Below, one piece after another: positions 49,001 through 55,000 of a stretch of 64,000 bases of DNA. The position numbers were made by a program. The stretch lies in the NCBI RefSeq assembly GCF_030013205.1, contig NZ_CP122649.1; one strand, 5' to 3'. Numbering within the stretch: position 1 is the first letter of the stretch; the number at the start of each line of letters is the position of its first letter. Source of the stretch: Escherichia coli. Lineage in GTDB: Bacteria; Pseudomonadota; Gammaproteobacteria; Enterobacterales; Enterobacteriaceae.

Positions 49001-52000
49001 GAAAGCCTATGACGAGTATTGTGAATCGATGTGGGAAAACCCTGAAAGGTGCGACGGGTTTCTGTATCACCTTATTGGCAGTACCGTCAGTTCGGATATC
49101 TCCCGCGACAACCCAGAAAAAACCGGCAGACTCATCGCTCACGCGTTACTGACGGGGGCCTCGATTGAGGATGCCTGTCGCTTTGCCTCAGAGGCTCAGC
49201 AGTTCGATACCGCTCTATCGGGACTGGCTTACCAGGTAGCCGTGGCCATGAAATTTGTTGCCGGTGATTCTGCGGCCGTAAGGAATGAAGGCCATCCGGT
49301 CATTACACTTTCCGACTCCTTCCGTCTTATGAGAAAAGCAAATATTAACACCCTGACGGCCACACAGAACAACCGGAAATGATGAGCACAAATCGATATG
49401 GATGCCGATATTAAGAACGATGATTATGTTGACTGTCTCATTGAGCAGGTAACCGTATAGCGGACTGGAACACGAATGCTGATGCTCTACACCAGGCCTG
49501 CGGCGCCTTCGTAGATGCACCGCATTCAAAACAAACGACAGGTGATAATTTATGAAGTTGACAAAAATGATGGCGACCTTGTTCCTGCTTATTCCCTTGA
49601 CATCTTTTTCGCAGGAATTGGGCCAGCGAATATCACAGGATGACAGTGCAGAACTGGCGAATAAGGCAGGTACAGCTTTGACAGAGATGCTTTTGCTAAA
49701 AGTTCAGCAATTGCCACAGGTGAAAAAGAACAGTGGAATGGACCTTGCGGCTGCAAATGACGCTGTTGCTTCCTTACTCAGCAAAGAGTTTTTCATTTTT
49801 AAACCAGTTGATGAAATCAGCATAAAAACCTCTGCTCAAAAATTAAAAGAGCTGAATGATGATGCCGACGCACTTGCTAAGGGGTACACCATCATTCAAC
49901 CAGATGATGTCGGAAGCTCCTACATTTCGTATAAGGTGACGTCCAGCTCTCGAACCTGCTTCATTCGCCTTTCAAAGGATCTGTCATCGTCATTAAATAC
50001 CAGAATTGTAACTGTGAATAGCATGGAGTGTTCGAACCCATAAACCACGTTGACCGGCTAATTCACTTTACGGGGTAAATGAGTTGTGAAACCCATTTTA
50101 TTTTCACCCTCAATTACAGAAATTCAAGCCGAATAGAGACTGTAATGATTATTATCCTTGGTGTTCTGCTTTTATTGTCTCTTTTCTTCAATATCTGGTT
50201 TTGGGATCACTATATGCGTGTCATTCCGTTATCAGCGGATAAAAGTAGCATGTTTGCTATCGCCTCCAGCTGTGAAAACCCTCGGTGGGTGCAAGAAGTT
50301 GAGAGCCGTGGGGGGATGACCCGTAAGGAATGGGCTGACTTTGTGGATCGAAATTTTAACCCTCCTAAATAGAGTAAATTCCGATTGGCATTGTTGCAGG
50401 AATTATGGTGCCGCAGCTTATTGGGTGTTTGTCAATTGCCGGGAAGTATTCGCTGGCATATCACTTAAACGGGAGTAGTAAGTGAGAGAACCTCGTCCAC
50501 GCCATACATTACAGGTAGTCTGTGTCCCGTCTCTGAATATACAGGATCTGGGGCTAACCAGTTTTCATAGCTGGCTCTTATCAAAAGGCTATGACACGAC
50601 CAATGCCAGGAACAACCGTACTTGCTGGGCAAGGGAAGGTGGCTGGCACCTGAAGCGATGCAGACATCTGGCAACGGGCGAAGATCATTTCTGGTTTATC
50701 GCATTCAACGGTACCGGCGGCGACATTTTTCCTGTGAAAACCCAGCAGGACTACCGTGCTGCCTACCGCAAGCTTGAAGCGTATGGATATGCACCGGCCG
50801 TTATTGAACAATTGAACACAGGCGTTGCCTATAATCTTGCTTATTCACGGACACCGTTAAAACGCCCTGAGAGCGCCACCAGCGAACTGAAGCGAAAACC
50901 TGACGTGAATATTCAGGGTGAGCCTTGCGAACGCTTTGTGACCGAACGGAGCAGCGCAGCGCAGAATAAATTCAAAACCCTGCTCATTGAGAACTTCGCC
51001 GGTCGGTGTGCAGTCACTGGATGGGTTAATGGTGGTGTGCTGGTGGCGGCTCATATCGAGCATGGGACGCGCTACAACCCTTCGAACGGCATCCTGTTGA
51101 CGCCGACAATGCACGCATTGTTTGACGCGGATCTGATGGGTATAGACCCTTCAACACTCACCGTTCATTTTAAACCGGGCATCGAGGCGGGAGAGCTGTT
51201 TGAAGGAAAAACGCTCAATCCGTTGGTGTATGATCTGGATACCGACCGGCTGGCTGCTCGCTGGGCTGACTTTATAGGTGCCGAGTGATTGATGGGAAAT
51301 TCAGCCTATAACCGATGGCAGTGTTTTCGGGATGGACACCACTTACTGATGGGGGCTGGCTGCACGCCACCTTTATATTGAAATCCAACAGAGTTGATAC
51401 AACAAATGCAAAATTGCCTTTCGGGATATTTAAAAGCGACCATTGTTATTTTATCTGCGGGCCTGACAGGTTGCGACCTGGCAAATGGGACTGCGGAAAG
51501 TGGTGTGTATCAGAAATACACGAATGGACCTTTCAAGGAACCGACTATCGTGATGAGTCCGGGCTGGCGGATGGATGACCACGGCAGGGAAGCACTAATA
51601 TTCGGGAGCAGCCACTGCCCGGATGTAAACGGCAATAATACGTCTGAGGGCGGCTGCGTCCTCATTGAGGAGCACTCTGCGACTGTCGCGGTCACTGTTG
51701 TTGATGCGACAAATCAGTCCCGTCGCCATGAAACCTGGACGATTGAACGTAAAAAGGATCGAGTTATAGTGAAGCGCCCGGATAACAGTTTTGTGATGCC
51801 CTGGGGAAAATAGCCAAGATACAAGATGACCACAAAAATGAATAAGCCGCAATGTTGTTTTGTGTGTTGAACGTCCTGATGGAGCCTTTGACATTTACAC
51901 TGGCCGTTTTATACAGTTCCACCAAATTGACAACAGTAGAAGAAAAATTGTTGAAATAAGTGATCCTGACCTGGTGGGGATGACTTATTCAATCCCGATG

Positions 52001-55000
52001 GTTTTTAACGGAGGGAAGTTCAGTGGTCAAGGGGTTACCTGTCTCTCGCTCCCCGCAGTAACATTAATAAAAGTAACTTTTCCTTCCCGAACTTATCAGG
52101 AGGGGCAGGAACAAATCACAATGTCGAGCCCGGACCAGGCACTATTTTCTGAAGATGTCCGGAAAAACTGCGCCGGTACGTGTGTTCTTACCGGCGTTCT
52201 AGGCAGACAAAGAACTGAGGCTGCGCACATAAAACCCCGTCATGCTGGTGGTGAGCCGGATGTGACAAACGGGATTCTACTGCGAAGTGACATCCATATT
52301 GGAATTTACTGCTTGGCAGGCATAATAAGAGGCAATAGAGTAAAAATCCCGAAAGAACAAGATATGCCATGTACGCTTCAATTAACGATGATATATGTCG
52401 GCATCACCTTTTTCCTAATTGTCGGTTATATCTGCCATCAAATAACTTAGAACTGATTTAGAATTGAATTTGATAAAGCTTACTACAAAGTAGTTTTGTC
52501 AATGTTCAACCTGTTTATCAAACCTACGGTGAATTTTTATGACTGGGAATGGTATCAATACTGTACGCATAAACAACGAAGTGAAACACATCTCAGAGTT
52601 AGATCCGGAGATCTCTTTTTCTTGAATGGAATAAACTGAAAAGTGAAAATAACGAACTGTATCGCTGCATAAAGGAAGCAAATTCTGGTTGGCGTGGTTT
52701 TGTCCTTCGTTTAATAGGGGTTTATCTACCTGATGGCAAAACAATTGTCATTAAACCCTAGATTATTTGAATATTCCTAAACATAGGCTTAATAAGAAAA
52801 GCCACTGAAAAGTGGCTTTTGAACTGAGCTGTTCGCGATTTTAATTTCAACTTGGGGTTCTAAGCCGGAACCGCCGAAAATTCCGTCAGCCGATCAACGT
52901 GGCTTGTCCCGCGCCCGGTCGATGGGGTAGACCCAACAGTCGTGTCACTAGCCGCCATTTCGATCACGGCAATGCCAGCCGGACGTCACGTCCAGATTGT
53001 TCCGGTCTGGATGAGGCCGACTGACGTCTCGGATGACGGGTGGCATACAACTGCTGTGAGTCCTGCAGGGGGGCAGCTGCCTGACCGGACGGCGAGCATC
53101 AGCCCATCTCATGTATTAGTCATGTCAGCTTTGACACTGCGCACGCGACGGCACCCGACCCGTTGCAGACCCCCAGACATATGGAAAGCTGACGCTCAAC
53201 GTGGAGTTAGCCGGCGCGGCGCGGCTTCATCGCGCAGCGTCCGTGTTGATGGATGGGTTAGAACTCTCTGGGGCACACATTTGAGAAAGACTATTTTTCA
53301 GCCAACGCAAAACCCGCGTTGCCAGATGCAACCACTGAGACAAATACAAACGGCACTGGACTAGTATTTAGAGCGCCATGCACTTGGCCAGGTTTTGCTA
53401 TGGCAATATCTCCAGCCTTTAGATGAGCGACTTTGCCGCCTCCTTGGTAATACTCAGCCTCTCCAGAGATAACCGTCCAAGTATCTTGGCCGTCCGGGTG
53501 AACATGAGCGGTTATTTCTTGCCCAGGATGGGCATGCCAAACAACAACTGCTGAGTCCTTGGTTTCCAGAACCACTGAACGAATTGGTTCGCCGTCAGAC
53601 GGACTAATATATTCTGTTACCGAAAATATTCTTGATTCCATTTCCATATCCACTCCAAAAATCAATTTGGCTTGAGAAGTTATTACAGAACAACTGTATC
53701 CGAGAGTTCTACGTTGCCGATAACCGGCCCGAAACGGCGGCGCAACGCGCCGCTGTTGGGGGTCCGTGTTCATCGGCGGGTTAGACCTGTGCTTGCGTAA
53801 GACGAATATCGACTTCTCGGTCGACGTATTTCCATTCCTCTGACGCACGCAGTTCGGAAAGCAGCCTGTTGAACTCAACCTCATGAATTGGCGCGTATTC
53901 GAACCAATTCAGAAAATCGAACGGTTCATTCTCTGAGAGGTCGCGGCAGTGGTGGAGCTTGCGCGCTACTGCAGGCAAATACTGAAGCCCGATTTGGACG
54001 TGCTTCGACTGTTCGAAAACGCTCCGGCGTTCGTCTTGCGTGAGCTCCCACCAAGCTGCGTTCTTCCGGATCGGTATTAGCGCACCGCACGTTGCTTCTG
54101 GGCGCGCCAGACCTTGCTGCTTCGCTACAATTTCATTCTTCTCTGCGCGCATGACATATCGTTCATTGCTGGTTATTCCACGAAGTATCCAGGGTGCATT
54201 GGTTTCAGACTGCAACTCTGAAGCGGATACGACGTTGAGCCTTTTGGCTTCAGGCAGGGGCTCGCCAACTCTCGTTTCGGCCCTGACAATCCGCCAAGGG
54301 CCAATGTCTGCGCCGACGAAAGCAAATAATCGTGTATCCATTTCAATCTTTCATGTGTGAATGTTTTAACTCTTGCAGCTTCGAAGAACCTATCTGCCGA
54401 TCCCGTGATTGTGCATCATCGCCTCCGCGCAACTGCGACGACCGCCCGCAGCAATCACATTGAACTTTCGAATCGAAACTGCTGAAGCGAACCTACGCGG
54501 ACGTACGGCCGCAGTCTGTGCGCTGCCGGACGGAGCGCTGCCAATTTGCGCCTACTGGCAGGCTGTGAGTGCGCGGATGGGCCAGCGACCTCCCTTCATA
54601 GAGGGAGCGAAGCAGGTCAGAGACACTATTGAACGTCCGCTACCGGGAAGATGCTTGACCGTCCGCAACTGGCCGCCTGCCGCCGACCGCGGTCTGGCTC
54701 GAAAGCAGTCTGTCAACGCGCCGTTTCATTGTTGCCATGATCATCTCTTAATCGCGCACAGGCGGCCACAGGCGGGCAGTATGAACCAGCGTCAGTATCC
54801 ACACCGTTTCGCCGTCGATCTGATACACCAGGCGATAGCTTTCGTGCGGGATCAACTCGCGGGTCCCGGGAATCTTTCCGGCACTGTTGCAAATAGTCGG
54901 TGGTGATAAACTTATCATCCCCTTTTGCTGATGGAGCTGCACATGAACCCATTCAAAGGCCGGCATTTTCAGCGTGACATCATTCTGTGGGCCGTACGCT

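Follow-up and report, generated by a model that had tools for sequence, protein, structure and literature searches.

An intact, putatively sensor-gated HNH nuclease gene beside the remnant of a second one in the backbone of IncHI1A plasmids

Do two HNH nuclease genes that flank a lipoprotein gene on a conjugative plasmid form one system, or do they only share a neighborhood? The question is raised by positions 50482-52450 of a 64,000-nucleotide stretch of Escherichia coli DNA (contig NZ_CP122649.1), which as a whole is called the window hereafter and corresponds to NZ_CP122645.1 128001-192000. An earlier note, written from the sequence, had described the locus as two HNH-domain genes flanking a lipoprotein gene and had likened it to a toxin/immunity or restriction-like cassette built on paired or duplicated HNH modules. 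The description holds, as both open reading frames (ORFs) match the Pfam family HNH_2 above its threshold and an ORF with a lipobox lies between them. The locus nevertheless consists of three independent genes and is not a toxin/immunity cassette, the apparent cassette being a coincidence of backbone order. We think it rather probable that these genes are a stand-alone, sensor-gated (Type IV-like) nuclease gene (HNH1), a lipoprotein gene that is merely its neighbor, and the remnant of another nuclease gene (HNH2). The locus belongs to the backbone of a conjugative resistance plasmid of the IncHI1A (R27) type: its 2.4 kb match, at 100% identity, large plasmids of E. coli and Salmonella whose typing is IncHI1A, MOBH, MPF_F and conjugative, and the prototype plasmid R27 holds the same genes.

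The argument starts from HNH1, whose parts are as follows.

50482-51288, + strand: HNH1, an intact two-domain HNH_2 gene of 268 amino acids with a GTG start, the same protein as WP_001209044.1 of R27
50494-50841, + strand: N-terminal domain of HNH1 (residues ~5-120), Trp-rich, of no known family
50953-51285, + strand: linker helix and beta-beta-alpha-Me HNH nuclease domain of HNH1 (residues ~158-268)
51007-51147, + strand: Pfam HNH_2 core of HNH1 (residues 176-222)

The 268-residue product with a GTG start that had been proposed for the first gene is the one found here. It matches Pfam HNH_2 (PF13391) along the whole profile (positions 1-66 of 66; E 6e-7) and a PADLOC HNH model with an E value of 3.7e-9. 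Read directly, its core is RCAVTG..AAHIEH..SNGILLTPTMH and that of HNH2 is TCVLTG..AAHIKP..TNGILLRSDIH, so that the C..TG...AAHI...NGILL...H core reported for both products is present in each, and the profile search agrees, with 29.7 bits for HNH1 and 30.0 bits for HNH2 against a gathering score of 21 bits. The catalytic triad of HNH1 (H191/N202/H211) is complete, and the protein also has C176 and D215, two residues that are nearly invariant. An AlphaFold2 (AF2) monomer model built from 76 sequences has a mean predicted local distance difference test (pLDDT) score of 90, exceeding 90 in the HNH region, and lays the protein out as an N-terminal alpha/beta domain (~5-120), a low-confidence linker (~121-157), a helix (158-171) and the HNH domain. 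HNH1 is an intact HNH_2 nuclease gene with a complete H-N-H triad and, in this model, an intact beta-beta-alpha-Me fold. It is also under long-term purifying selection: against its IncHI2-type ortholog, which has 79% identity, 271 residues and an ATG at the equivalent position, the ratio of nonsynonymous to synonymous substitution rates (dN/dS) is 0.07, with dS saturated (~2). Homologs of HNH1 occur in 1609 PLSDB plasmids, in 960 of them at no less than 80% of full length, and the protein carries the same accession in R27 and in the plasmids identical to the window. In two records a HipB/HipA-type toxin-antitoxin pair lies within 1-2 kb of an HNH1 homolog, at 3586-5209 of the IncHI2-type sequence L007 and at 8065-9685 of L018, a cys-flanked islet.

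The structures closest to the modeled nuclease half of HNH1 are two modification-dependent restriction endonucleases, the SRA-HNH enzyme TagI (PDB 6GHS, PMC6212794) and the EVE-HNH enzyme VcaM4I (PDB 6YEX, PMC7897488), and HNH1's C-terminal HNH domain is of their structural type. The likeness is confined to this half: identity to TagI is 16-24% over the nuclease half only, and HNH1 is known from its sequence and a model. By alignment with the residues named in the VcaM4I paper, H224/N241/D250 of VcaM4I correspond to H191/N202/H211 of HNH1, the third catalytic position thus being Asp in VcaM4I but the canonical His in HNH1. HNH dimers of the VcaM4I type produce 3' overhangs of a single nucleotide, and in VcaM4I the linker helix is auto-inhibitory. 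The N-terminal halves differ altogether. TagI begins with an SRA (PUA-superfamily) base-flipping sensor, whereas the N-domain of HNH1 is without SRA/PUA similarity by any method used; the sensor of VcaM4I is an EVE domain, to which the N-domain of HNH1 is unrelated as well.

This uncharacterized N-terminal domain is the sole remaining novelty at the locus. It is Trp-rich, of ~120 residues, with the topology beta-beta-alpha-alpha-beta-beta-alpha-alpha-alpha and with Q11, W31, Y37, D38, W49, G54-W55-H56 and F70-W71 invariant. All full-length carriers of the domain also have HNH_2, and it was detected only among Enterobacterales sequences and contigs from metagenomes and read assemblies. A long charged extension precedes it in four homologs (P0162 and P0164-P0166), and in another, P0163 (L018 6001-7281), it is followed by two HNH_2 modules in one chain. 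Pfam HNH_2 also covers 'putative restriction endonuclease' proteins of ~300 residues, and both window ORFs lie above the threshold of that family; hundreds of such relatives share the common HNH_2 module and a C-terminal extension, but their N-domain is unrelated to those of HNH1 and of the ancestral HNH2. In hhalign comparisons the three N-domains are mutually unrelated, which rules out that the N-domain of HNH2 is a diverged version of the one in the generic ~300-residue family.

What, then, might HNH1 do? Its most likely function would be that of a stand-alone, sensor-gated (Type IV-like) defense nuclease. By analogy with TagI, VcaM4I and McrA, HNH1 would dimerize via its HNH domains, the linker and the N-domain would keep it inactive, and the linker helix would hold it off DNA. 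It would cut only once the N-domain recognizes something that marks DNA as foreign, a modified base or backbone being the likeliest candidate, and may in this way serve the plasmid that carries it as a methyltransferase-independent (Type IV-like) nuclease of defense or competition. Like Type IV HNH enzymes it stands alone, as no methyltransferase gene adjoins HNH1 or its homologs in eight contexts, and its relatives in chromosomal islets occur singly, with integrases, Lamassu-like genes and toxin-antitoxin genes of the HipBA or Fic kind as neighbors. We do not file HNH1 as a member of a Type IV family, however, because the defining N-terminal sensor of modified DNA was tested for and no recognized one was found. 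The more specific proposal that the Trp-rich domain is a new class of sensor, which gates an HNH_2 nuclease by recognizing a DNA modification or some other sign that DNA is foreign and makes HNH1 a single-gene system of defense or plasmid competition, is tentative, and we would lean against it.

The second HNH gene has had a different fate, which its features record.

51860-52450, + strand: HNH2 remnant ORF, 196 amino acids from TTG, of which the Prokaryotic Genome Annotation Pipeline (PGAP) calls only 52121-52450 (109 amino acids)
51838-51870, + strand: start stub of the ancestral HNH2, which begins with ATG (MNKPQ) and then runs out of frame to a TGA
51852-51853, no strand: junction of a 200-bp frameshifting deletion, with 2-bp AT microhomology
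51860-52297, + strand: the part of the remnant ORF that derives from HNH2, with 146 codons counted from TTG, ending at the last His of the H-N-H
52297-52298, no strand: junction of a 486-bp in-frame deletion (CCATA/TTGG), with 2-bp TA microhomology
52298-52450, + strand: end of the fusion ORF, formed by the last 50 codons of a gene for a small membrane protein of 100 amino acids

That this copy might be degenerate, and perhaps frameshifted, had been suspected, and two deletions mapped to the base bear this out. The frameshift comes from the 200-bp deletion at 51852/51853: the intact ortholog P0043 begins MNKPQSIRLRPV, and in a comparison of the junction the window reads, from the same start, MNKPQCCFVC followed by a stop. 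Relative to L003, the sequence that holds P0043, these 200 bp are missing from all IncHI1A plasmids, and blastn of the window against L003 places the loss at about codons 6-72 of an ancestral HNH2 of ~296 residues. The contiguous junction is found in 127 PLSDB plasmids, R27 and pHCM1 included. The contiguous junction of the 486-bp deletion, which the window plasmid shares, is found in 17. Many plasmids, R27 among them, hold these 486 bp, which extend HNH2 to 236 residues and are followed by the rest of a 100-residue membrane-protein gene; this gene is intact in R27 and L002, and its product matches PHROG 2169 ('membrane protein'). Even the 236-residue form is damaged, as its closer relatives, the intact orthologs, have 285-303 residues (P0043 in L003, 296; P0044 in the IncHI1B plasmid L005, 303; one in the IncHI2-type L007, 285).

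The 486-bp deletion takes codons 147-236 of HNH2, the stop codon, a 63-bp spacer and the first 50 codons of the membrane-protein gene. It equals 162 codons and is therefore in frame, and the ORF consequently ends with the last 50 residues of the membrane protein. The cut falls directly after the last His of the H-N-H, so that 90 C-terminal residues are lost together with the metal-finger alpha-helix and the invariant L-F-D in it, and the window copy lacks an intact beta-beta-alpha-Me fold. The remnant matches Pfam HNH_2 (E 4.6e-7) at profile positions 1-55 of 66 only and scores below threshold against PF01844 HNH; the intact ortholog P0043 reaches 46.8 bits with Pfam HNH_2. We aligned the remnant with orthologs of 236 to 332 residues. 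An AF2 model of the ancestral protein (P0043) has pLDDT below 50 at residues 1-68 and 120-162, and because its N-terminal half is of low confidence it was left out of the fold search. HNH2 is what is left of a second nuclease with an HNH1-like layout and a different N-terminal domain, probably inactivated first by the 200-bp frameshifting 5' deletion that is common to the R27 lineage. Later, in the sub-lineage of the window, the 486-bp deletion stripped the metal-finger helix and the whole C-terminal region and fused the ORF to the membrane-protein tail. Judged from its sequence, HNH2 of the window is a chimeric pseudogene, a twice-deleted remnant.

Several results weigh against taking the locus as a sensor-gated nuclease gene with two unrelated neighbors. 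The N-domain of HNH1 matched neither SRA, EVE, any other PUA, NEco, SBD or winged-helix domain nor any fold, and since it resembles no known modification sensor its 'sensor' role is pure analogy. A profile search with this domain for fusions to other types of nuclease yielded nothing but alleles of the same gene in truncated form, and because the domain was never found fused to a different nuclease type, the support that such a fusion would bring to a modular reader is missing. R27-type plasmids carry a C5-cytosine methyltransferase ~7 kb from HNH1 on the other strand, with which a specificity of HNH1 for 5-methylcytosine would be in conflict. Moreover, both HNH genes are often truncated or disrupted by insertion sequences (IS) in natural IncHI plasmids, which indicates that whatever they do is dispensable. 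Finally, dN/dS between the HNH2 remnant and an intact ortholog is 0.28, compared with 0.26 between intact orthologs, and sequence drift alone is no proof that the remnant is dead.

Of the other explanations for HNH1 itself, a part in plasmid biology rather than defense, as a nickase or nuclease of conjugation, replication or recombination or as a homing-type endonuclease, seems unlikely. HNH nucleases do have DNA-processing or homing roles elsewhere, and HNH1 is a conserved IncHI backbone gene near the replication and transfer regions. However, it is frequently truncated in plasmids that are otherwise conjugative, its homologs in chromosomal islets lie among toxin-antitoxin and defense-like genes with no transfer genes around, its syntenic position has been stable despite the saturated synonymous divergence, which speaks against homing, and the structures nearest to it belong to restriction enzymes rather than to relaxases or homing enzymes. 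That HNH1 is an orphan among sequence-specific (Type II-like) restriction endonucleases, with its methyltransferase gene at another place on the plasmid, is in our estimate very unlikely. The cytosine methyltransferase gene of R27, ~7 kb downstream, could be taken for the missing partner, and a PADLOC 'Type II restriction enzyme' HNH model gives weak matches (E 1e-3 for HNH1 and 1.7e-6 for HNH2). Yet the linked methyltransferase of a Type II system is absent, none being adjacent in any context examined; L001, which is 100% identical over the locus and has an intact HNH1, is annotated downstream with IS26 and floR and with no methyltransferase gene; and the chromosomal relatives stand alone.

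Whether HNH1 has a partner at the locus itself turns on the lipoprotein gene and on HNH2, and the first of these lies between the two HNH genes.

51406-51813, + strand: putative lipoprotein gene, 135 amino acids from ATG (the PGAP start); as an ORF from the TTG at 51394 it has 139 amino acids

By motif reading only, this ORF has a signal-like N-terminus, MQNCLSGYLKATIVILSAGLTG-C-D, in which residues 20-23 form the lipobox L-T-G-C and Asp follows at +2 (the lipobox was defined as [LVI][ASTVI][GAS]C closing a signal-like N-terminus), and profile searches gave it no family match. HNH DNases are common toxin modules, and a small ORF with a signal-like N-terminus stands between both HNH genes in IncHI1 and IncHI2 alike, which would suit a cassette in which one or two HNH DNase toxins are neutralized by the small secreted or lipoprotein product, as in colicin or contact-dependent inhibition (CDI) DNase pairs. 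The intervening proteins are not the same, however. IncHI1B has an ortholog of the lipoprotein and an extra 67-residue ORF, whereas the slot in IncHI2 is filled by a secreted-type protein of 141 residues and a Cys-rich one of 102, non-homologous to the IncHI1 protein (BLASTP E = 3). A lipoprotein homolog with 33% identity occurs in a Klebsiella MOBH plasmid without an HNH neighbor, a Tn3-family element splits the lipoprotein gene of L003 alongside an intact HNH2, and the HNH1 relatives in chromosomal islets have no lipoprotein gene, so that no conserved adjacent immunity gene emerges from the comparison of IncHI1, IncHI2 and chromosomal relatives. A cytoplasmic nuclease would also be beyond the reach of an exported lipoprotein, and the Pfam scan found no colicin-DNase, toxin-delivery or delivery-domain family, HNH_2 being the sole family above threshold. 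We consider the cassette so improbable that we reject it, its partner not being conserved; the lipoprotein is an unrelated neighbor of the HNH genes. Of what the earlier note had been reminded of, the restriction-like part stands, for the nuclease half of HNH1, and the cassette does not. The idea of duplicated modules fails too: the alignment of HNH1 with HNH2 is limited to ~117 residues in the nuclease module (31% identity), and their N-domains are unrelated (hhalign probability <1%). Because only the nuclease module aligns, the two genes are not a recent duplication, and a simple tandem duplication is ruled out. An older cooperation between two different HNH_2 proteins, such as a heterodimer whose subunits would each nick one strand or would contribute different sensors, with the window holding the broken system, we regard as distinctly unlikely. 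HNH1 and HNH2 are syntenic and both intact in IncHI2; an unrelated element, the distant metagenomic mobile element L014, has two adjacent HNH_2 genes (6094-8623; 264 and 540 residues, the second HNH1-type); and the double-HNH_2 fusion P0163, from an islet flanked by sulfate-assimilation (cysJIH/cysG-type) genes, has a second module with 45% identity to the L014 partner. Decay has been reciprocal, however. IncHI1A kept HNH1 and lost HNH2; the IncHI1B plasmid L005 (NZ_CP029142.1) is the reverse of the window, with HNH2 intact at 303 residues and HNH1 (4914-5585, compared with window 50482-50707) showing unrelated sequence in place of its first ~75 codons. In addition, HNH2 is split by a frameshift in L009, an IncHI2 record. 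HNH1 is 100% conserved in plasmids without a functional HNH2, no other HNH_2 gene lies within 6-7 kb of the homologs P0017 and P0162, the second modules of L014 and P0163 are not orthologous to the HNH2 of IncHI (31-37% identity all round), and the characterized relatives are homodimers. Recurrent reciprocal decay is easier to reconcile with accessory genes that can be dispensed with than with two genes forming one obligate machine, and the suggestion that a heteromeric nuclease lies behind the repeated occurrence of two different HNH_2 modules side by side or fused (IncHI backbone, L014 and P0163) is a weaker add-on. In the literature on HNH genes of IncHI1 and R27, only a remark on IncHI5 was found: the HNH endonuclease gene hnhc is listed as backbone and repeatedly split by IS elements, with no function given (PMC6339943). 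As described, this splitting parallels the recurrent decay of the HNH genes seen here.

In Salmonella Typhi, E. coli and Enterobacter, plasmids of the IncHI1 and IncHI2 groups are vehicles by which multidrug resistance spreads, and many of the backbone genes of these plasmids are of unknown function. If HNH1 is indeed a sensor-gated nuclease, it could affect which phages or rival plasmids a host accepts, its N-domain would be a new reader for the toolkit of modification-dependent nucleases, and an uncharacterized single-gene system would be present on ~2% of sequenced plasmids, the clinically important IncHI1 and IncHI2 included. The annotated 'second HNH gene' of R27-type plasmids is a deletion remnant, and a chimeric ORF in the sub-lineage of the window, and is to be left out of any count of functional nucleases. 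The two deletion junctions, with their 127 and 17 PLSDB records, are clean lineage markers for IncHI1A plasmids.

In its setting the locus is ordinary plasmid-backbone content that had been annotated before, both ORFs already bearing the RefSeq label 'HNH endonuclease signature motif containing protein'. The window represents the Tra2/RepFIA side of the plasmid and runs from the Tra2 region (parM, rsp, trhF/W/U/N and trhI) through hypothetical genes, hha and a RepFIA-type repE to the HNH locus, ~8 kb past repE. Upstream of HNH1, at 48177-50372, lie ORFs of 401 residues, 163 residues (signal-peptide-like) and ~75 residues (transmembrane) that have no family matches and seem to be missing from the annotation of R27, where ~1 kb is unannotated; the 401-residue gene is present in IncHI1B. 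Just downstream, the fusion ORF is followed by what PGAP annotates as a hypothetical pseudogene with a frameshift (window 52539-52761; L001 8240-8462), in the deleted and undeleted plasmid forms alike. Further on, at about 52800-56000 of the window (L001 8992-14401), are cupin and chlorite-dismutase-family genes, a RelE/ParE fragment, IS26 and floR; the H-NS-family, DUF6884, DUF4942, DUF1173 and cytosine methyltransferase genes of R27 are all absent from the ~6 kb of annotated downstream L001 sequence. Promoter and terminator scans gave site numbers not above those of shuffled sequence.

The HNH2 remnant also contains, as had been noticed, a perfect copy of a palindrome that is dispersed through the window.

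52069-52081, no strand: copy of the palindrome AAAAGTAACTTTT inside the HNH2 remnant, at codons K-V-T-F
3913, 5759, 11537, 18050, 18731, 25194, 28948, 32538, 37382, 44376 and 52069: sites of the 13-bp palindrome
8004, 9178 and 13039: core-only matches

With at most one mismatch, the 13-bp palindrome AAAAGTWACTTTT has 11 sites in the window, compared with 0.22 expected from shuffles. When the three core-only matches are included, 12 of the 14 sites lie inside long ORFs, all on the + strand, among them rsp, trhU, trhN, trhI, a VWA gene, a tus-like gene and the HNH2 remnant. They are read as KVTF, KSNF or KLLL; since the sites fall in all three reading phases, selection acts on the palindrome as DNA and not on the peptide. 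The copy at 52069 is also present in the intact HNH2 of L003 and L005, and it is not found in the HNH2 of IncHI2. The dispersed palindrome resembles the 13-bp KorB operators of IncP plasmids.

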